Source: an uncultured Mycoplasmatota bacterium (GTDB taxonomy: Bacteria > Bacillota_I > Bacilli_A > RF39 > UBA660). Taken from it: a DNA stretch of 32,000 nt. How positions within the stretch are numbered: position 1 is the stretch's first letter; the number at the start of each line of letters is the position of its first letter. Made by a program: the position numbers and the translations under genes. The stretch lies in assembly GCA_948465965.1 (NCBI GenBank), contig CAOJYR010000001.1, positions 40,353 to 72,352 on the forward strand, written 5' to 3'. Positions 4,214 to 22,826 of the stretch are shown here, one piece after another. The notes under the pieces are model-generated. The model saw only the letters and a program-made list of their open reading frames with translations, was not told the DNA's origin and did not search any database.

Positions 4214-4445
4214 ATGTATCCTCCTTAAAATTAAAAAACTTCTAAAATTTATAAGGACGAGTTTTCCCGCGGTTCCACCTTACTTATTCTAGAAGAATCA
4301 TCTTTAACTTATACTGCTCGTAGCTTTCCACACCAGTCATCACACTTATCACTTAAAATAATACCTGTTTTACTTAAAAATGTCAATATTTTTAATTCTA
4401 CTTTCAGCAATCATGAAATAATTAATTTTCTCTTTTCACATCATT
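4214..4445 (-). promoter_or_regulatory. T-box leader (tRNA-sensing riboswitch) of glyQS
   Basis: The minus strand reads AAGGTGGAACCGCGGG (4281-4266), matching the conserved T-box antiterminator sequence. A GA/K-turn-like TGATGTGAAAAGAG lies near 4440. A possible specifier GGU followed by A lies at 4365-4362. The 5' boundary is approximate. Confidence 0.75.
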
Positions 4446-4487: not shown

Positions 4488-5408
4488 TTATGCAACATCA
4501 TCTATTTTATTTATCTGCTCTTTAGTCAAATGGGTATACTTAGATATAAATTCGATATCTATATCATCTTTTAACATCGCTTTAGCTATTTCTTTGGAAC
4601 CTTCTTGTTTACCTAAATCCTTCCATGCCCATTCCTTGTCATAACTTTCTCCAAAAAACTCATCTTCTACTACTTCCTCTGCTTCTTTTATATATTCTTC
4701 CATAATCTCCAAGTCTCCTCCTAATTCTTTTGAAGTTAGAATATCTGGCTCTATTAATCCTAGTGCATATCTTTCTTCTTCACTTAGTCTTTGTATGCCA
4801 CTAGTATACCATTTTCGTCTTAAATTTGGAATATAGATTTGAATAAATATTAACTTATCATTTAATACGACTCCTTCATCATTTTTAATCATATAAATAT
4901 CTATTATTTTATCATTCCCCTTAAAAGAAAAGTTATTCCAGTTGAATTGAATCACCTGTGTATAAGAATAGTCACTATTTCTTTTTACTTTACTTGCATA
5001 AAGTCTATGAGCATATTCCATATTTCGCTCTAGTACTTCTTTACTACTATTATTATTTATTTCTATATTTATTTTAATATCATTCACTATCGCAACATAA
5101 TCACATCTCTCTCCTTTATTTCTTTCTTTATCTTTATCCAATTCTCCTTTTGATAATTTAATATTATTTAGTAAGTCTTCATATTCAATATCTAGGTAAT
5201 ACGATAAAAACTTAGCCGAATACTTTATTCTGTTCTCATTATAAAACATAGTTTTAAACATACTATCTGACATTATAGATGGCTTTTGTCCTTCTTTCAA
5301 TTTTTCAATTTTTACTGAATCCTTATATGAAACAATATTATCATATAAAGACTTATAATTATAATCTCTTAATTTTAACACTTTATTCCTCCCAATAGTT
5401 TGACTCAT
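4488..5408 (-). CDS. PD-(D/E)XK nuclease family, putative transposase (Rpn/YhgA-like), island-flanking copy 1
   Basis: FKTMFYNENRIKYSAKFLSYYL...CDYVA...INIEINNN fits the Rpn-like D...ExQ/N core. Paralogous to 11639..12448. An alternative start is ATG 5273. Confidence 0.55.
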   Translation of the reverse strand: MSQTIGRNKVLKLRDYNYKSLYDNIVSYKDSVKIEKLKEGQKPSIMSDSMFKTMFYNENRIKYSAKFLSYYLDIEYEDLLNNIKLSKGELDKDKERNKGERCDYVAIVNDIKINIEINNNSSKEVLERNMEYAHRLYASKVKRNSDYSYTQVIQFNWNNFSFKGNDKIIDIYMIKNDEGVVLNDKLIFIQIYIPNLRRKWYTSGIQRLSEEERYALGLIEPDILTSKELGGDLEIMEEYIKEAEEVVEDEFFGESYDKEWAWKDLGKQEGSKEIAKAMLKDDIDIEFISKYTHLTKEQINKIDDVA

Positions 5409-5580
5409 TCGAATAAGTAGATAAACTATAACAGGAGAAACAATTTATTGCAAACTATACTTTTTACAAATACAAAAGAAAAAGATTAAGAAAAAATTAT
5501 ATTCTCCTAATCAATTATTTAAATTTATATAGATTACTTATTTTCTTTTACAAGTTTACAACAAACAATGAATAGTAATT

Positions 5581-7188
5581 TCATCTATGCATATTTACAT
5601 TAGAGTAATGGTTACTTGTATCAAGCAATAATCTTTTAAGTTGTTCATCTGTTATATTTATTACTTTTCCACCCTTAGGATTAATTTTTTTACCACCAAA
5701 AACAATCCATATTGCATCAATACTCCTATCTGGCATACTAGATTCTCCATCGGTAAAGATTATCTTGTTTTCAACTCTCCCAGTAAATACATTAACAGCA
5801 ACATCAAAGTTTGTTCCACCACCACCAAGAAATGGCATATTATCAATATCATTTTGATTTCTAATCTCGGTAAACCCATAAAATTCATCATCGAAACATC
5901 CTACTTTTACTTTAGATTCTTTTAAAATGTTTTTACATTCTCTTAAAAAATTCCTTAATAGCGTTTCAGAAACAGACCCACTTGTATCTAATAATATCTC
6001 AGTCTCAGGCTTAGGCATTTGTTCAAGATAAGGAGTTACTACGCCATCCTCTATAGAAGCATTTCTATAAGACCAATCAACATCATACCTCACAGCCTCT
6101 TTCAAGAGATATCTCCAATCGATTAATGGTTTACTTACACCTATATCAGTTACCTTTCTTTCATCACCATTTGACCCCTTCCCAGAACAATGTGACTGAC
6201 TAGCAAGTGATTTTCTTAATTCCTCCAATTGCTTTATTCGATCTATACTATTCTGTTTAAAAGATTTCTTTTCACCTAAATCTGTCAATTTTTTAATTTG
6301 TTGTTCCTTCTCTTTTCGCTTTTCATTCTTTTCCCTTTGAAAATTAGTTTTGGCATCCTCTGAAGTTTTCTCTATTGTTTGCTCATCTTGATTCGCATTA
6401 CCCTTTTTATCATTCCAATCCTTATGAAAAACTCTATCAAAAAAGCCTCTTTTATCTTTGGAGTTTATATTACCTTTAGTACCAACCATATCCGTATCAC
6501 TTGATTGTTGTACCGAATTGTCCTCTAAACCACTATCCTGTTTTTCATGTTGAAAGTCTTGATGTGGTGATTGTTCTAATTTATTATTATTAGCATCCTC
6601 ATCCTCTTGACGTCTTTTCTGGACACCCTTTTGCCACATATTATGTGTATCATACCCCACATCTATATTAGATGCTTGAGAATTTTCACTAGAACCTGAC
6701 CTGCTTTCATTTTGAGAATTCTGTTTCTGGGGACTAATACTATCCTGTGATTCATTACTGTTTTTATCCTGATGCCTTTTCTTATCCTCTAATAATTTCT
6801 CATAAAAAGACTCAGCATCATAATAAATAGCCTCTGGAATATTAATACTATCTTTTGGAATTACTATACCATCTTGTTTTAAATTAGCATTTACAACAGC
6901 ATCCGTTGCTATATTCCAAAGTTCAGGATCCTTCCCTTCACTTCTAAAAATATGATCAAAAGCTATATGACATATTTCATGTGCAAAAAGATACAATCTT
7001 TCTTCTTCTGTTGCATTCCTTAAATAATCTGGATGATAATAAACATTAGTTCCATCCGTCCCTCCAGTTGGTTGACCATTAGAATAACAATTGCTATCTT
7101 CTATATAATTTGTATTTGCTACTATACTTCCAAAAAAAGGATACTTAACTAATAACTTTCTTTTAATTGCTTCAATATCCACTTTCAA
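5581..7188 (-). CDS. putative Zn-metallopeptidase (HExxH) fused to a VWA domain (DUF2201-like), with a long low-complexity linker
   Basis: N-terminal FAHEICHIAFDH...ATDAVVN (HExxH). C-terminal ILLDTSGSVS (DxSGS MIDAS-type motif). A central linker of about 200 aa is rich in Q/S/N/E/K. Confidence 0.7.
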   Translation of the reverse strand: MKVDIEAIKRKLLVKYPFFGSIVANTNYIEDSNCYSNGQPTGGTDGTNVYYHPDYLRNATEEERLYLFAHEICHIAFDHIFRSEGKDPELWNIATDAVVNANLKQDGIVIPKDSINIPEAIYYDAESFYEKLLEDKKRHQDKNSNESQDSISPQKQNSQNESRSGSSENSQASNIDVGYDTHNMWQKGVQKRRQEDEDANNNKLEQSPHQDFQHEKQDSGLEDNSVQQSSDTDMVGTKGNINSKDKRGFFDRVFHKDWNDKKGNANQDEQTIEKTSEDAKTNFQREKNEKRKEKEQQIKKLTDLGEKKSFKQNSIDRIKQLEELRKSLASQSHCSGKGSNGDERKVTDIGVSKPLIDWRYLLKEAVRYDVDWSYRNASIEDGVVTPYLEQMPKPETEILLDTSGSVSETLLRNFLRECKNILKESKVKVGCFDDEFYGFTEIRNQNDIDNMPFLGGGGTNFDVAVNVFTGRVENKIIFTDGESSMPDRSIDAIWIVFGGKKINPKGGKVINITDEQLKRLLLDTSNHYSNVNMHR

Positions 7189-7198
7189 ATTTATATCC

Positions 7199-7597
7199 CT
7201 AAATATGCACCATCAATGAATATACTTCTTCACTAATTGGCTTTTCCTCTAGATTAGTAGCTGTTACAATAATAAAACAATTTCTTGGTAAGTCAAAGGT
7301 ACTAATTTTCTTATATTTTAATATTTCAATAAATTTTGTTTGTTTATCTAGTTTAAGTTGATTTATATTATCTATAATTAGTATTGCAGGTTTATCCTTA
7401 TTATTTGTTAATTCATAGTACCAATCAGGTGCTCTAAAAGTAAAACCTTCATAATGCCCATTTAATAATGAAATATCACAATTTGCATCTATTATGACAG
7501 CATTTTCAAAAATATTCGCAGGAATATCTTCTAACAAAATTGGAGACATACCTGATCGAATATATCCATCTAACATCGCTAATCTCTCTTTGTTCAT
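7199..7597 (-). CDS. small AAA-like protein lacking a Walker A motif
   Basis: PAILIIDNINQL resembles Walker B and CFIIVTATN resembles sensor 1, but no GxxxxGK(S/T) is present. The start overlaps the upstream stop (ATGA, 7597-7594). Confidence 0.45.
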   Translation of the reverse strand: MNKERLAMLDGYIRSGMSPILLEDIPANIFENAVIIDANCDISLLNGHYEGFTFRAPDWYYELTNNKDKPAILIIDNINQLKLDKQTKFIEILKYKKISTFDLPRNCFIIVTATNLEEKPISEEVYSLMVHI

Positions 7598-9207
7598 CGA
7601 CTCATTCCTCCTTCCGATAGCTCAACCATTTTTAATTCTGCTATTTTCTCTAGTCTAGACTCATCACCATGGGACCACAAGCTATCAAAAGTAGCTCCAA
7701 TTTCTGGTCCTAATTTCATAACAAAATTTCTTATAGTTAGTAAATTACTATCATCAACTGAGGAAAGCCCAACTGCTGTTGCAAACTTCTGTGCTGTATT
7801 CATTTCTAAATCCTCTTCTGTATAATTACCATTCAATACATCTTCAACCGTTATAACTCGCTGCCTAGTAAATGCAGTAAAATCTCTTGTTAACTCCTCT
7901 CCAATTAATGCCCTTAACATTTCAGGTTGCCCTGTAGCATACAAAACTTTAGATGCCATCTCCCATTTTCTGGGATCTGCATTTGGTTTTTCCCCATTAT
8001 AGGGAGTCCTTAGAACATCCTTACCACCAGAGGATTTATAAGCAACATATGCATATATTGAAGGATGAATTGTTAATTGTTCCTCTTCTTTTTTATAATT
8101 CAATCTTTCATATTGCTTTTTTGGAGTGGATGCCCATTGAAGCCAATTATCAACTGTTGTATTTATATATACATGAGCAAAACGATTAAATAGTGGTTCT
8201 GCCATTGTATTCGCAGCTAGAGAATCATTTAAATCATTTCCTGCAGCAACAATACGTACATTTTCTGGTAATTTCCAAATACCATTTACTTCTTTGTCCA
8301 AAACAATATTAAACGCCATACCCTGAATAGAAGGAAGCGCATTTGTAATTTCATCAAAAAATACAATATGCAATTTATCAGGTTCATCTTCACATTTCTT
8401 TTTAATTTTAGAAAGCCAAGTTGGAGCTACATCAATCATCTCTCCAGTTGCAGAATTAAAAACACTTTTTCCATTCAAACTCTCAGGAGTTGCATTCCTT
8501 AAATAAATAATCTCACAATCAGGATCAAATTGTTTTACTCTTGCACTTTTACCCTCACTACTTCTACCATGCAAAAAAACCGCAATATTACTTTCCAACG
8601 CACCCCTAATAATTTCTTCTTCTGATACATTTTCAAAATTAAAACCATATGGATTTTGTCTTCTCTCCATTCGTTTTCTTTCTTCATCTGTTAAAGGTTT
8701 GCTTTCTACAAATGATCTATTCTGCATTAAATCAGTTGAAAAATACGTATCCATATATTGTTTTATATCTGTTGTACTAAAATCCCCTTTATAATCTCTC
8801 TTATGTTTAAATTGAACCCCTGCAAATAATATCTTCTCACTAAGCATAATTCCTGATTGCTCATCAACTATCCACTTAACAGGTTCTACTTCTACCCAAA
8901 CATAATCTCCATCGACATACTCACACCCATTAGATAGTGTAAATTTACTACCACCAAAATCTGAATTCGCCAAAACCCTTACATATCTTTTATTATCATA
9001 TTCATATTCATCTATAGTCCTCGGTAAAAACTTTTCATCATATTCATCATATTTTCTTGAATCAACAGTATATGTATTACCTGTTCGTCTCATTCTACCG
9101 CTATGATACGCTTGCTCTAATGTAGACTGCATAAGTTGCGTAGCCACAGTTTGTGGATAGAATCCATACTCAACTTCTAAAATACCGTCATCCGCTCTTC
9201 TACTCAC
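7594..9207 (-). CDS. MoxR-like AAA+ ATPase with an N-terminal beta-rich (DUF6273-like) region; probable body of the DGR target
   Basis: Walker A GRSSEGKS, Walker B HIVFFDEITN, sensor-1 VRIVAAGN. The track start GTG 9207 has no spaced RBS, and the frame stays open upstream through the VR to 9303. Confidence 0.75.
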   Translation of the reverse strand: MSRRADDGILEVEYGFYPQTVATQLMQSTLEQAYHSGRMRRTGNTYTVDSRKYDEYDEKFLPRTIDEYEYDNKRYVRVLANSDFGGSKFTLSNGCEYVDGDYVWVEVEPVKWIVDEQSGIMLSEKILFAGVQFKHKRDYKGDFSTTDIKQYMDTYFSTDLMQNRSFVESKPLTDEERKRMERRQNPYGFNFENVSEEEIIRGALESNIAVFLHGRSSEGKSARVKQFDPDCEIIYLRNATPESLNGKSVFNSATGEMIDVAPTWLSKIKKKCEDEPDKLHIVFFDEITNALPSIQGMAFNIVLDKEVNGIWKLPENVRIVAAGNDLNDSLAANTMAEPLFNRFAHVYINTTVDNWLQWASTPKKQYERLNYKKEEEQLTIHPSIYAYVAYKSSGGKDVLRTPYNGEKPNADPRKWEMASKVLYATGQPEMLRALIGEELTRDFTAFTRQRVITVEDVLNGNYTEEDLEMNTAQKFATAVGLSSVDDSNLLTIRNFVMKLGPEIGATFDSLWSHGDESRLEKIAELKMVELSEGGMSR

Positions 9208-9510
9208 TCCGTTCGTAGAGATATCAGAGATTGAAGAGTACGTTAAAGCTGGGCGAGCACCACCATCGCGTTTAATAACATCGATGTCGTATCTATAACC
9301 ATTCTAGTAAACGACGCGCGCGTCATTATCCTGATCATCAGAACTTGTCCAATACCATCCTGTCCTATCCGCTAAAGTATTATTACTATGGTCAACATAA
9401 TAATCATCATCGACATAAGCGCCCAATAAAATTGAAAAATCTGTTACAGCCGCCTTTGTACCTCTTTTTTTTATAATATTAATTGGATTATTAAAATATT
9501 GATTTTTACA
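9208..9510 (-). pseudogene. DGR variable-region module (KAAVTDFSILLG...GWYWTSS...ARPAL) in frame with the AAA+ ORF, interrupted by TAG at 9306-9304, with no canonical start
   Basis: My translation: CKNQYFNNPINIIKKRGTKAAVTDFSILLGAYVDDDYYVDHSNNTLADRTGWYWTSSDDQDNDARVVY*NGYRYDIDVIKRDGGARPALTYSSISDISTNG, followed by VSRRADDG of the AAA ORF. The pseudogene label is provisional. Confidence 0.6.
9249..9322 (-). repeat. DGR variable repeat (VR)
   Basis: 74-nt match to 10763-10836 with 11 mismatches (9267, 9268, 9275, 9282, 9284, 9288, 9291, 9297, 9298, 9304, 9309). Each mismatch faces a T on the + strand of the TR, which is an A on the coding strand. Confidence 0.93.
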
Positions 9511-10539
9511 TTATTTGACATCTTTTGGTAAAATTTTCCTTTTAAAATTCAAACTTTCATCTGTATTTTTAACATGATTATAAAATGCATTTTTTCGCAT
9601 ATAAACATAAAAGGAATCTACAATATTCTTATTTTCTAATTTTTCTAGTGTTCGTAAATGTTTTTTCATTCTTGATTTAGAAGATGCTCTAAGTTTCCTA
9701 ATAATCTTTCCACTATCTGTTAGTATATGTCTGTAACCTAAAAAATCAATTCCATCACACACTTTCCCAATCTGTGTCTTTTGATTTAAAGATAATTTAA
9801 GTTCTAAAGAGCAAACTCTCTCTATTTCTTTTAAACATCTACGTAAATATGCTTTATCACGATGTATTAAAATCATATCATCCATATACCGAACATAACC
9901 TTTTATTCTAAACCTCTCTTTAATAAGTCGATCAACTTTATTTAAATATAGTAAAGCAAACCATTGACTAGTCTGGTTCCCCAAAGGTAGTCCAATTTTC
10001 ACATCATTAGGTTGCTGTCGTATCATCTTCTCTATAATCCACATTTCATCATCACTAAAGGATACTTCTTTCAATAATTTAATAAGTATATCATGATTAA
10101 TACTAGGAAAATACTTCTTTATATCACACTTTAAAAAGTAAAAATGATTATTATTCTCTTTTAAATACTCATGGCGCAAAAATTTTTCTAATCTATGAAT
10201 CGCAAAATCAGAACCCTTACCACACCTACATGCAGCATTATCAAATATAAGCTTTGCCTCAATCTTTTCTTTAACCGAATGATCACAAAGACACCTTATC
10301 ACTACTCTATCCTTATAAGGAAGAGCTTCAATTAATCTCTCTTTCGGTTCATAAATATAAAATTCGCGATATTTACCCAATTTATATTCTCTGGTAGTAA
10401 TTTCTTTTATTATCTTACTTATATTAACACTAAGATTAGCTTCAAATCGAATCACCTCACCCTTATGTTGTTTGCCTTTGCGACAATTTTTATGGGCTTC
10501 ATATAAATTTTCAAAAGTAAAAATATCTTCTAATTTCAT
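9511..10539 (-). CDS. DGR reverse transcriptase
   Basis: IGLPLGNQTSQ matches the DGR-type (I/L)GxxxSQ. YMDD catalytic box (VRYMDDMILI). An N-terminal FENLYEAHKNCRKGK region is present. Size of about 340 aa with no maturase or endonuclease domains. ATG 10539 lies 4 nt after GGAGGGAG. Confidence 0.9.
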   Translation of the reverse strand: MKLEDIFTFENLYEAHKNCRKGKQHKGEVIRFEANLSVNISKIIKEITTREYKLGKYREFYIYEPKERLIEALPYKDRVVIRCLCDHSVKEKIEAKLIFDNAACRCGKGSDFAIHRLEKFLRHEYLKENNNHFYFLKCDIKKYFPSINHDILIKLLKEVSFSDDEMWIIEKMIRQQPNDVKIGLPLGNQTSQWFALLYLNKVDRLIKERFRIKGYVRYMDDMILIHRDKAYLRRCLKEIERVCSLELKLSLNQKTQIGKVCDGIDFLGYRHILTDSGKIIRKLRASSKSRMKKHLRTLEKLENKNIVDSFYVYMRKNAFYNHVKNTDESLNFKRKILPKDVK

Positions 10540-10551
10540 AACTCCCTCCAA

Positions 10552-10762
10552 AAAAAGAACACCCCTTATAACCTCTAAAGATAGAATAATCTAACGTTAG
10601 AAAGTGTAAGTGTTCAAATTATTCCACCGCACTAATCTCTCCTAGCGGTTAGAAAAGAGAAAAATCCCTTCACTCTATGGAACTGATATATCTTACTTAA
10701 AATATATTTCTCTGTCCTGTTTTCTAGATTCACGATTTTTGTAAATCTCTTCAAAAGTGAAT
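10552..10762 (-). ncRNA. DGR spacer RNA region between TR and RT (part of the TR transcript)
   Basis: Non-coding and GC-enriched relative to its surroundings. Contains the 8-bp hairpin AGATTCAC/GTGAATCT (10726-10733 with 10757-10764) abutting the TR 3' end, and a CCGC...GCGG hairpin near 10628-10650. Confidence 0.6.
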
Positions 10763-10836
10763 CTGGGCGAGCACCACCATTTCGTTTATTAACATTGTTG
10801 TTGTTTCTATTTCCATTTTAGTTAACGACGCGCGCG
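10763..10836 (-). repeat. DGR template repeat (TR)
   Basis: In the target frame the coding strand reads cgc gtc gtt AAC TAA AAT gga AAT aga AAC AAC AAC AAT gtt AAT aaa cga AAT ggt ggt gct cgc cca. This is the AAY-codon-rich pattern typical of DGR TRs. It is non-coding, between avd and RT. Confidence 0.93.
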
Positions 10837-10924
10837 AGGCAACACGAGGGGGCTCAAGCGACGTAACCACCCTAAAATTAAATTTTTCTCTTAATTAAAA
10901 GCCTTTCGACTTAAAATCCTAAAA

Positions 10925-11503
10925 TCATTTTCTAAATCTTTTATCGTCACTTTTTTTCCAAGCAACAATCAAATTTATAGCATCAGCTGTCTGTAAAGAT
11001 ATCTGCCTATATTGCTTTCTTAAAATACAGCCAGATGATTCCGCAACCATTGCAATATAGCCAAGCATTTTAAGTTTAACAATTGCTTCTTTTTGAAAAT
11101 CTTCACGACGCTTCTTATTTAGATCACTATCCAGTCTTATAAAATTGGCCTGAAGCAAATCTTCTAAAACATCTAAACAATAATTTTGCATTCGATTAAC
11201 AAAAACTCCTCTAAATCTTTTAGGAGATTTCTCTGTAATAGCTATAACATAAGCACATAATTTCTTTACTTTAGTTATAACAATTAAATCATTAGAATTA
11301 AAAGGTATCTTAGAAACACTCTCTAATTCTCTGTCAAAGTCTTCCACCTGCTCTAAAATCTTCTTCTCATTGATTTTTTTATCATTCGCCATCGCAATAG
11401 ATATTTTTGATTCAACTTCATCATCTACACTATTCACGACTTTTACGACTTGTTCTACTTCTTTTGGTATTTTCAAACTACCATCTCTACTAACTTGTAA
11501 CAC
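10925..11503 (-). CDS. avd: Avd-like accessory variability determinant (four-helix-bundle family) with an N-terminal extension
   Basis: The C-terminal ~120 aa (KLCAYVIAITEKSPKRFRGVFVNRMQNYCLDVLEDLLQAN...LKMLGYIAMVAESSGCILRKQYRQISLQ...AWKKSD) resembles Avd and 23S-IVS helical bundle proteins, and the gene sits in the canonical position 5' of the TR. GTG 11503 lies 8 nt after GGAGGG. The track start 11563 falls in a -35 box. Confidence 0.7.
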   Translation of the reverse strand: MLQVSRDGSLKIPKEVEQVVKVVNSVDDEVESKISIAMANDKKINEKKILEQVEDFDRELESVSKIPFNSNDLIVITKVKKLCAYVIAITEKSPKRFRGVFVNRMQNYCLDVLEDLLQANFIRLDSDLNKKRREDFQKEAIVKLKMLGYIAMVAESSGCILRKQYRQISLQTADAINLIVAWKKSDDKRFRK

Positions 11504-11534
11504 TACTACTACCCTCCAAGTTAATTTTAATAAT

Positions 11535-11563
11535 AGTATAATGTAACACAAAAATTTACGCAA
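11535..11563 (-). promoter_or_regulatory. sigma-A-type promoter of the DGR operon (TTGCGT-17 nt-TATACT)
   Basis: -35 box at 11563-11558, -10 box at 11540-11535, spacer of 17 nt, about 30 nt upstream of the avd start. Confidence 0.45.
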
Positions 11564-11638
11564 TAAATATTTAGTTTACTTTTTACAAAAACTATAACAT
11601 AATTCTATTTTAAAACTAAAAAATCTTATAGATAGAAC

Positions 11639-12448
11639 CTATTTTAACTTTTCTACTTCTTCAATGGATAATTTTGTTATTTTAGAAATTGTACCAATAT
11701 CTATTTTTTCCTTTATCATCTCTTTTGCCATATTTATTGTATTGTCTTTCGCACCATCATTATATGATTCTTCTTTTAAAGCTAATTCTTTATCATAAAT
11801 CTCACCAAAATATTCATCATCTAATACCTCATTTACTTCTTTTATATAGTCTTTCATAATTTTTAAGTCTCCTCCCAATTCTTTAGAAGAAATTATATTT
11901 GGCTCTACTAAAGCCAATATAAATCTTTCTGCTTCGGTTAGGTTTTGTATACCTTGATTGTACCATTTTCTCCTTAAATTGGGAATATAGATTTGAATAA
12001 ATATTATATCATTTGAGAGTCTTAATTTTCCTTTATTATTTATTGTATAGATATCTATTACTTTATTATTTCCAACGAATGAAAAGTTATTTAAATTAAA
12101 TTGTATTATTTGCCTATATTTATAAGTGGATTTGTCTTTTCCTCTTTTTACTTTACTTCCATATAATTTGAATGCATAGTCCATGTTCCTCTTTAAATAT
12201 TTCATATTACTATTACTATTACTATTATTATTTACCTCAATATTTATTCTAGCATCATCTATACCCGCTACATAATCACTTCTATATTCCTTATTATTAT
12301 GTTTTTCTTTGTCCAACTCTCCCTTGCTTAACCTTATATTTTCTAACAATTCTTCATAACTTATATCTAGAAAGTATGAAATGAATTTAACACTATACTT
12401 AAGTCTATTTTCATTATAGAAAATAGTATGAAATAGCGTATCAGACAT
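11639..12448 (-). CDS. PD-(D/E)XK nuclease family, putative transposase (Rpn/YhgA-like), island-flanking copy 2, N-terminally shortened
   Basis: Collinear with 4488..5408 (FHTIFYNENRLKYSVKFISYFL...SDYVA...INIEVNNN) and shares identical nucleotide runs such as ggaatatagatttgaataaatatta. Homologous coding-like sequence continues upstream to the recO stop without a start codon. Confidence 0.55.
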   Translation of the reverse strand: MSDTLFHTIFYNENRLKYSVKFISYFLDISYEELLENIRLSKGELDKEKHNNKEYRSDYVAGIDDARINIEVNNNSNSNSNMKYLKRNMDYAFKLYGSKVKRGKDKSTYKYRQIIQFNLNNFSFVGNNKVIDIYTINNKGKLRLSNDIIFIQIYIPNLRRKWYNQGIQNLTEAERFILALVEPNIISSKELGGDLKIMKDYIKEVNEVLDDEYFGEIYDKELALKEESYNDGAKDNTINMAKEMIKEKIDIGTISKITKLSIEEVEKLK

Positions 12449-22749: not shown

Positions 22750-22826
22750 TGGTGTCCGCGAGGCGACTCGAACGCCTGACCGATCGCTTAGAAGGCGATT
22801 GCTCTATCCAGCTGAGCTACGCAGAC
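22750..22826 (-). tRNA. tRNA-Arg (anticodon TCT), CCA encoded
   Basis: The minus strand reads GTCTGCGTAGCTCAGCTGGATAGAGCAATCGCCTTCTAAGCGATCGGTCAGGCGTTCGAGTCGCCTCGCGGACACCA. It has the D-loop AGCTCAGCTGGATAGAGC, the anticodon loop CTTCTAA, and the T-loop GTTCGAGTC. Confidence 0.9.

Follow-up and report, generated by a model that had tools for sequence, protein, structure and literature searches.

Nonsense codons in the template repeats of a family of gut Bacilli retroelements, probably tolerated and reversible, and a family member that appears locked OFF

Can a diversity-generating retroelement (DGR) switch its own target gene on and off? This question is raised by a cassette in a stretch of 32,000 nt of contig CAOJYR010000001.1 (an uncultured Mycoplasmatota bacterium), the whole of which is called the window here. 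In this cassette the template repeat (TR) carries a TAA, in the reading frame of the target protein, at the codon where the variable repeat (VR) carries a TAG. All coordinates are window positions, and the complete cassette lies on the minus strand. Published studies describe the adenines of DGR templates as positioned, in AAY codons, in such a way that stop codons are avoided (bioRxiv 10.1101/2024.11.15.621889; 10.1101/2023.09.22.558884; PMC12875486), and a 2026 study argues that a misincorporation bias of the reverse transcriptase (RT) lowers the formation of stops from AAA and AAG. A full-text literature search for stop or nonsense codons in TRs and for DGR phase variation yielded no natural example, only engineered reporters. 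An earlier note on this DNA had proposed that the two codons form a built-in switch. Our analysis leads to a different reading, which we consider probable: the locus is a genuine chromosomal DGR of gut Bacilli, the TR stop is a trait of its family, the copy in the window is locked OFF, and the stop is tolerated and reversible.

The two repeats and their nonsense codons are located as follows.

10760-10836, minus strand: TR, adenine-rich (AAC TAA AAT GGA AAT AGA AAC AAC AAC AAT GTT AAT AAA CGA AAT), a direct repeat with the VR.
10818-10820, minus strand: TAA in the target frame at TR codon 6, counted after A-R-V-V; two of its bases are mutable adenines (from direct reading).
9246-9322, minus strand: VR, a direct repeat with the TR.
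9304-9306, minus strand: TAG in the frame of the VR, derived by an A-to-G change from the TAA of the TR, from direct reading and the same in a second assembly (L001).

TR and VR each span 77 nt, share 84% identity and form the only long direct repeat that a repeat finder detected in the region. Their mismatches, 12 out of 12, sit at TR adenines; one of them, GAT in the TR versus GCT in the VR at the 3' end, is a fixed difference in every relative. As the VR differs from the TR solely at adenines, no drift has occurred since the last homing event. AAC or AAT make up 9 of the 15 variable-region codons of the TR, and the substitutions fall on codon positions 1 and 2. The 16-nt 3' core GGTGGTGCTCGCCCAG is present exactly twice in the window, where 0 occurrences are expected, which indicates a single TR and a single VR; repeat search and the count of this core revealed no further VR in the window.

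On the minus strand the VR reads ...GTC GTT TAC TAG AAT GGT..., with TAG at 9306-9304, and the TR reads ...GTC GTT AAC TAA AAT GGA..., with TAA at 10820-10818, in agreement with what the earlier note had read as an A-to-G change. Translated, the VR gives GWYWTSSDDQDNDARVVY, a stop and NGYRYDIDVIKRDGGARPAL (that is, ARVVY, stop, NGYRYDIDVIKRDGGARPAL), and the TR gives ARVVN, stop, NGNRNNNNVNKRNGGARPD. A protein search returned more than 3,000 relatives, and in more than 100 full-length homologues (630-650 aa, most of the best 120) the open reading frame (ORF) runs through the VR module in this same frame and into the same ATPase. On this comparison it is not in doubt that the frame holding TAA and TAG is the real frame of the target. 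The earlier note had taken the AAY codons as marking the frame of the module and had named translation in a different frame as a possible refutation, which the homologues contradict. The TR of the window is, contrary to the usual property of DGRs, not free of nonsense codons in the target frame.

A first concern is whether the codon is a stop in vivo. Some gut phages and Mollicutes recode TAG or TGA, and with a reassigned code, a suppressor tRNA, pyrrolysine or efficient readthrough the allele would really be ON. The closely packed genes of the window end in TAA 16 times, in TGA 8 times and in TAG 5 times, and since they terminate at all three codons the code is the standard one and TAG a genuine terminator here. 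The sole tRNA in the window is tRNA-Arg(TCT), at 22750-22826 on the minus strand, and no suppressor tRNA was found in the window; reassignment of the genetic code was rejected on stop-codon usage and tRNA content together. Across relatives, all three stop codons occur at VR stop positions. In one relative (L003), the 569 codons 3' of the VR stop hold no TGA, and the window copy lacks a start codon anyway, as described below. We regard a codon that is read through as very improbable.

A second concern is that TAG or TAA could be a sequencing error or a chimeric consensus over a heterogeneous VR. The contigs are metagenomic and VRs are heterogeneous in populations by nature. A second assembly (L001, ENA ERZ14864794 NODE_13477) is 100% identical over 1.29 kb including the TAG, and it has a coverage of 3.8x and possibly derives from the same reads, which weakens the possibility of an assembly or consensus error raised in the earlier note and does not remove it. 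Against such an error, the TR also has the stop and is not a heterogeneous sequence. Four other species share this TR codon, and the 13 distinct TRs in which stops occur come from many independent samples and assemblers. We give an artefact hardly any weight. A same-strain pair of ON and OFF alleles was not found for the window species, for which there are just two contigs, both with TAG.

The remaining parts of the cassette make the window locus, as judged from its sequence, a complete and genuine DGR in the order Avd - TR - RT - target. Its two protein-coding DGR genes, both of which are intact ORFs, are these.

9511-10539, minus strand: DGR RT, 342 aa (ATG at 10539, stop TAA at 9513-9511; Pfam RVT_1, E = 1e-17).
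10925-11563, minus strand: Avd-like accessory gene, 5' of the TR, with the Avd domain at residues 93-205.

The RT carries LPLGNQTSQWFA (motif LGNQTSQWFA), and inside it the SQ dipeptide, which in motif 4 is a hallmark of DGR RTs (PMC3521204). It is 64-73% identical to the RTs of related loci and, among NCBIfam models, matches only generic RT families under their cut-offs. The Avd-like ORF matches Pfam bAvd (E = 5.5e-5, 24.1 bits versus a cut-off of 40) and NCBIfam DivGenRetAVD (E = 1.7e-6, 28.3 bits versus a cut-off of 80), in both cases below the curated cut-off, and its placement 5' of the TR is kept in relatives. A phage origin was rejected, as a blastn search of positions 7000-12000 against phage genomes gave no match and the neighbours include RecO (13273-12533, minus strand); together these indicate that the locus is chromosomal and not a prophage. 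The locus shares with canonical DGRs (those of Bordetella phage BPP-1 Mtd, Treponema TvpA and the Bacteroides pilus-tip proteins) the SQ-motif RT, the Avd-like protein, TR/VR differences at adenines only with mostly AAY codons, the fixed 3' TR/VR difference (GAT versus GCT, resembling the initiation of mutagenic homing element) and a conserved hairpin 3' of the VR. Unlike them, it has an in-frame nonsense codon with mutable adenines in the TR, its VR lies near the N-terminus of a multidomain ATPase of cytoplasmic type, and the order is Avd-TR-RT-target.

To learn how far the TR stop extends beyond this locus, related loci were gathered by the target protein in reference genomes, by RT alignment in metagenomes (a scan that covered 80 of 349 reported relatives) and by exact look-up of truncated and full-length homologues. 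Counting codons from after the invariant A-R-V-V, we extracted 13 distinct TRs with in-frame stops, at five codon positions, and 7 distinct TRs without a stop. The stops of the TRs, with the window locus denoted WIN, are distributed as follows.

TR codon 5: TAA in L092; TAG in the species represented by L101-L111.
TR codon 6: TAA in WIN, L003, L004, L023 and L096.
TR codon 12: TGA in L003; TAA in L005 and L098.
TR codon 14: TAA in L014; TAG in L095.
TR codon 17: TAA in L093 and L100.

The comparison of orthologous TRs for a conserved TAA, which had been suggested as a check, thus finds the codon-6 TAA in four further loci and other stops in eight more TRs. Among loci retrieved regardless of the state of their VR, 5 of 12 distinct TRs carry a stop, versus none of 21 TRs that the same scan recovered from other DGR families (Fisher p = 0.003). 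TRs with a stop do not cluster in the RT tree but occur all over the family, and the codon-6 TAA is shared by lineages whose RTs are just 64-67% identical, and also by L096, whose target is about 40% identical. By these sequence comparisons, roughly a third of the TRs have a mutable stop, and this characterises the related DGR family as a whole; it is not an accident of one locus.

Every VR stop with a readable TR coincides with a TR stop; in L094, where VR codon 12 is TAA, the contig ends before the TR. An origin of VR stops from AAA (Lys) or AGA (Arg) codons of the TR, with a predicted AAA-to-stop rate of 7.5%, was considered and is refuted for the codon-17 cases L093 and L100, in which the TR itself has TAA. 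One case of truncation at codon 10 (P0157) is represented by its protein alone. In the loci with TR stops, the target ORF is, apart from the VR, free of stops and frameshifts, and most of these loci have intact RT and Avd ORFs.

Evidence that templates with a stop yield both kinds of allele comes from a related species, that of the P0019 protein cluster, whose loci are 98% identical at the nucleotide level. Its TR, identical in the 5 loci read, begins GTC TAG AAT AAT GGA, with the stop at codon 5. Six distinct alleles (L101, L102 = L108, L103, L104 = L107, L105, L106) are OFF, with TAG at VR codon 5, and at these loci the gene is called as a 73-aa ORF followed by a 540-aa ORF. Other alleles are ON: the codon is TCG in L109-L116 (the 647-aa protein P0212, 23 contigs), and from proteins it is read as Trp (TGG) in P0214 and as Leu (TTG) in P0220. 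TNG has exactly three sense outcomes, Ser, Trp and Leu, all of which are seen here, and the species has at least 9 distinct VRs. The occurrence of TAG together with TCG, TGG and TTG under one TR with TAG at codon 5 indicates that the DGR produces ON/OFF variation in this related species in natural samples. Both ON and OFF alleles are thus present in natural populations of one related species, and the sequences point to a dedicated high-rate mechanism as their writer. The link between hypervariation and stochastic switching drawn in the earlier note holds to this extent, for stop and sense alleles under one TR in a relative, and fails for the copy in the window, which is not switchable.

Activity of these DGRs in nature is further indicated by the species of L095, whose TR has TAG at codon 14. 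Here 11 distinct N-terminal fragments of 83 aa were found, identical in residues 1-74, varied at VR codons 5-13 and all ending at codon 14; since these 11 VRs differ while their flanks are identical, the DGR is active in nature and has repeatedly written null alleles that dominate the assemblies. Two further loci, L017 and L019 (VR at about 4303-4382), have RTs that are 100% identical and identical TRs, and several of their VR codons differ between samples, which is direct evidence of DGR activity in the gut. The partial VR of L018 matches that of L017. For the strain of the window one allele is known, and the evidence for activity comes from these relatives.

How often would a homing event switch the gene off? 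The adenine-specific misincorporation of the RT acts on the adenines of a TR nonsense codon too, and each mutagenic homing then writes at that codon a stop (TAA, TAG or TGA) or Tyr, Ser, Cys, Trp, Leu or Phe. In 14 TR/VR pairs of related DGRs, 198 of 351 TR adenines (56%) are unchanged in the VR, with A-to-G at 18%, A-to-T at 14% and A-to-C at 11%. From these rates the computed P(stop|TAA) is 0.52 and P(stop|TAG) is 0.56. The earlier note had counted 13 of 16 TNN outcomes as sense, which is right as arithmetic and wrong as an ON rate, because it assumes that all adenines are always randomised equally; given 56% retention, the ON probability for TAA is about 48%, not 81%, and a stop is written with about 52%, not 3/16. 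A TAA in the TR thereby turns each homing event into a near coin flip between full-length and truncated protein.

The observed fractions of OFF alleles do not depart from this expectation. They amount to 3 of 5 among relatives retrieved regardless of VR state, to 5 of 8 distinct alleles as tested in the P0019 species (6 of 9 with the L103 allele) and to at least 11 of 17 in the L095 species. OFF fractions that match the expectation without selection mean that null alleles are not detectably purged, nor clearly favoured at these numbers. In the homologous proteins the VR is found about 90 residues into the chain, so that an in-frame stop in it removes about 85% of a full-length target of about 640 aa, and not a C-terminal tip.

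The copy in the window has suffered a second lesion, overlooked in the earlier note, which affects the start of the target gene. What is left of the gene consists of two parts.

9307-9510, minus strand: 5'-truncated remnant of the N-terminal module of the target (CKNQYF...ARVVY), without ribosome-binding site and without ATG or GTG start, abutting the RT stop in the same frame.
7594-9303, minus strand: rest of the target ORF, 569 open codons that encode a middle domain rich in beta structure and a MoxR-like AAA+ ATPase; in the annotation, a protein of 537 aa from GTG 9207.

In relatives, the RT gene is followed by a spacer of 50-100 nt, a ribosome-binding site of GGAGG or GGTGAT type, an ATG and then xNFTFLTEEQ(I/C/Y)FG.... 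In the window, the stop TAA of the RT (9513-9511) runs directly, and in frame, into CKNQYFNNPINIIKKRGT, which corresponds to the residues of homologues from about residue 9 on (9470-9520). Alignment with L094 and L095, the two closest DGR-bearing relatives, indicates that about 59 nt are missing, with the ribosome-binding site, the ATG and the first 8 codons. Upstream of the VR in the window there is no ATG, GTG or TTG with a plausible Shine-Dalgarno sequence. We infer that the VR module of this strain is untranslatable whatever codon stands at 9304-9306 and that the copy is locked OFF. With the ribosome-binding site, the ATG and 8 codons lost, rewriting of TAG to a sense codon would not restore the protein, and from the gene structure the TAG of the window is a symptom of an OFF locus and not the lever of its switch. 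That the present allele is OFF, as the earlier note had claimed, is borne out; that the TAG decides it is not. The damage appears to be recent, since 569 downstream codons are open (in a genome of 28-32% GC) and the RT and Avd ORFs are intact. The window copy is probably dead, a recently decapitated member of its family that its own intact DGR could still rewrite.

The annotated GTG start of the ORF behind the stop falls in another conserved element.

9199-9219, minus strand: conserved hairpin 3' of the VR, candidate DGR target-recognition element, with the stem TCTAC/GTAGA and the loop GAACGGAGTGA.

This hairpin lies about 27 nt 3' of the VR. Its 11-nt loop GAACGGAGTGA is identical in 16 of 21 distinct sequences (the window and 20 related ones), and its stem of 4-5 bp covaries (CTAC/GTAG, CCAC/GTGG, CCTC/GAGG); it is probably the target-recognition hairpin of the DGR. 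The Val codon inside it is GTG in 17 of 17 loci that have Val there, whereas GTG makes up 10.8% of Val codons in the background. The conservation of this GTG is better explained by the DNA or RNA element of the hairpin than by a function as start codon. A conserved internal GTG start that would produce a sensor-less ATPase was considered and is disfavoured, the codon lying in the loop of the covarying hairpin without Shine-Dalgarno spacing.

Loci that have degenerated in ways no homing event would undo are frequent among the relatives. They comprise the 5' deletion of the window, an RT frameshift in L004, VR indels (in DNA in L093 and L103, and inferred from protein sequences in P0019, P0217 and P0221), a deletion in L091 and losses of the L006 type. 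L091 (Logan SRR13292339, positions 1380-1440) has an ATPase 98% identical to that of L095, and a recombination between TR and VR has removed its RT together with the N-terminal part of the target, leaving a TR-like sequence with its stop codon fused to the rest of the ATPase gene. L006 (CALVQK010000006.1, positions 5998-7101), the closest homologue of the window ATPase with 77% nucleotide identity, is without the N-terminal VR module, the middle domain and the DGR, and retains the genes of the 140-aa and DUF2201 partners. In the protein cluster of its species (P0010), forms of 326 aa account for 8 of the 15 members listed; L006 and these forms indicate that sensor-less forms of the system exist naturally. 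In L002, two tandem full-length target paralogues (5668-7551 and 7588-9486; 56% and 65% identical to P0018) stand in a locus with no TR and no RT. L004 has TAA at TR codon 6 and AGA in its VR (4308-4380, 5887-5960), the T/A difference being the sole non-adenine mismatch in the VR body and lying at the first base of the stop codon; its RT (4599-5611) is split by the frameshift. Either a stop allele in this dead DGR was rescued by a point mutation, or its TR recently changed from AAA to TAA.

Such losses suggest an alternative in which nothing switches: reduced gut Bacilli are losing the sensor module together with its DGR, the TR stops are early lesions, and the window copy is a pseudogene. The two independent lesions of the window copy (no start and TAG) fit this alternative, as do L006 with the 326-aa forms, the loss of RT and N-terminus by TR-VR recombination in L091, and the fact that 11 of 11 VR variants in the L095 species are OFF. 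It accounts poorly for the intact RT and Avd ORFs of the window and of most TR-stop loci, and for 569 codons that have stayed open after the TAG at such a low GC content. VR/TR differences confined to adenines, hence no drift since the last homing, also speak against it, and so do full-length Ser, Trp and Leu alleles under a TAG-carrying TR and TR stops across deeply diverged lineages that retain complete systems. We consider decay as the full explanation unlikely.

The opposite alternative is that the nonsense codon of the TR is selected, so that the DGR would be a diversifier and at the same time a retroelement-driven engine of phase variation, a thought that we entertain only tentatively. 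A bet-hedging switch of this kind would keep the TR stop in order to both diversify and phase-vary the sensor-ATPase, for instance if the system is costly or prone to autoimmunity. TR stops that recur, and may persist, over deep divergence (the whole RT tree, with the codon-6 TAA at 64-67% RT identity) argue for it, as do ON alleles that are widespread (P0212, in 23 contigs) and the sole non-adenine mismatch of the L004 VR body, at the first base of the stop codon. OFF alleles at consensus frequency in otherwise intact genes are, moreover, the classical signature of a contingency locus. Against selection stand the ratios of OFF to ON, which are as expected without it, and the irreversible degenerate states that are common among relatives. 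The codon at which the stop lies also varies from lineage to lineage, a pattern that points to recurrent drift rather more than to a conserved device, and the target has no known phenotype and no PADLOC match. The earlier note's built-in switch, in the sense of a selected one, is not sustained, given the OFF frequencies and the many other degenerate states; we hold a selected switch to be possible but doubtful.

Beyond these two alternatives most of the weight goes to a tolerated and reversible coin flip, with a marginal share left for artefact or readthrough. The stop would be a tolerated, reversible consequence of weak selection on the sensor module, coin-flip-like in its outcome and not a proven adaptive device. 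Several points weigh against this reading. The L095 species, the best sampled, has 0 full-length sequences among 11 VR variants and looks more like a permanently dead module; 6 of the 21 members of its ATPase cluster are outside the members listed, so full-length alleles are possible there. The comparison of ON and OFF alleles spans strains that are 98% identical and not isogenic, and so does not follow a single lineage. A metagenome consensus across a VR can be chimeric. Several of the TR-stop loci came from searches with truncated proteins and carry an ascertainment bias, of which the figure of 5 in 12 alone is free. Finally, the sole conserved in-frame GTG of the approximately 540-aa ORF behind the stop sits in a structural hairpin, without Shine-Dalgarno spacing.

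By homology and modelling, what the DGR diversifies appears to be a DUF6273-like module, of C-type-lectin type, at the N-terminus of a MoxR-like AAA+ ATPase, which is an unusual place for a VR. The homologue P0026 matches DUF6273 (PF19789) with 27.0 bits versus a cut-off of 23.5, with the C-terminal part of the model and over the VR module; precomputed PF19789 matches exist for P0002, P0004, P0026 and P0055. The window module and two other homologues gave no PF19789 match, and a match to Fib_succ_major was weak. Phage tentaclins are a known case of DGR targets with N-terminal DUF6273 domains, which are C-type-lectin-like (PMC10743442). For the homologue P0018, the AlphaFold model has a predicted local distance difference test (pLDDT) score above 90 for residues 1-270. 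In a Foldseek search with this model, the C-terminal half matched NorQ (of the NorQD complex)/MoxR, sigma-54 activators, dynein and MCM AAA+ modules at E of about 1e-5, with low TM-scores, the model being multidomain. No Pfam AAA family lies above threshold. The fold of the N-terminal module was also sought from models, and here the full-length Foldseek search was swamped by the AAA domain and the isolated fragment, with a pLDDT of 50, was too poor.

Two genes follow the target and share its operon.

7199-7597, minus strand: conserved 132-aa partner gene, syntenic in all related loci, no family match.
5581-7188, minus strand: DUF2201 protein, ATPase partner, with a metallopeptidase-like N-terminal part and a VWA-like domain (Pfam DUF2201_N, E = 2.6e-27; DUF2201, E = 4.7e-11), syntenic in relatives.

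Both partner genes are syntenic in all relatives, and it is the DUF2201 domain of this neighbour that is VWA-like. Neither PADLOC nor NCBIfam assigned the target or its partners to a family, and nothing was matched by sequence in the PDB. The hosts of the relatives are gut metagenome-assembled genomes (MAGs), with records titled uncultured Bacilli, Tenericutes or Clostridium. Throughout the window (1-32000) almost every gene is on the minus strand, the GC skew is strongly negative and the GC content is 24-33%.

The closest known parallels to this gene set are the DGR-diversified MoxR ATPase/vWA 'ternary' conflict systems and the CLec-AAA ATPase targets of Candidate Phyla Radiation (CPR) and DPANN genomes (Kaur et al. 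2020, PMC7159879; Dore et al., 10.1101/2023.09.22.558884), in which a DGR-variable lectin-like sensor is likewise tied to a MoxR-type AAA+ ATPase and a VWA-domain partner. The likeness suggests a sensor of intracellular ligands or invaders, and by the same analogy a role of the target/DUF2201 system in defence can be conjectured. Unlike in these systems, the VR module is here fused to the N-terminus of the ATPase, the partner is DUF2201, no VMAP or effector domain was recognised, the hosts are gut Bacilli MAGs and there is no PADLOC match. Phage tentaclins share the N-terminal DUF6273-like, C-type-lectin-like module with the VR. They are receptor-binding proteins in which Ig-like domains come next, whereas the protein studied here is a chromosomal ATPase, with one homologue above the DUF6273 threshold.

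As a source of ON/OFF variation, the family resembles classical phase variation by slipped-strand repeats or invertible elements, which is also stochastic, in principle reversible, high in rate and confined to a single gene, with null alleles that are common in populations and an ORF that is otherwise intact. It differs in that template-directed reverse transcription acts at adenines, without slippage or recombinase, and in that the ON alleles differ among themselves. In engineered DGR reporters with TAATAA or TGATAA in the TR or target (PMC3240598; PMC12875486), the adenines of TR stop codons are mutagenised experimentally and changes from stop to sense are possible, as here; those stops are artificial and serve as terminators or selection markers, whereas the present ones are natural and lie inside the coding frame.

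This family of natural DGRs breaks the rule of no stop in the TR: a mutable stop is present in roughly every third template, and in natural populations truncated and full-length alleles arise from the same template. If the stop were selected, DGRs would serve as phase-variation devices besides being diversifiers, and a lectin-sensor/MoxR-ATPase/VWA system would flip between full-length and null (or sensor-less) forms in about half of the homing events, hedging the cost of the system against its benefit in gut Bacilli; this mode of DGR function is not described in the literature searched. If the stop is merely tolerated, the family shows a hypermutator that keeps writing into a gene which selection no longer protects. 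The finding also matters for the interpretation of DGR targets in metagenomes, since genes of this kind get annotated as two ORFs or as pseudogenes. In either case, the ratio of stop to sense at one codon in deeply sequenced VRs would be a direct readout of selection on the target, which makes these retroelements a tractable test case.

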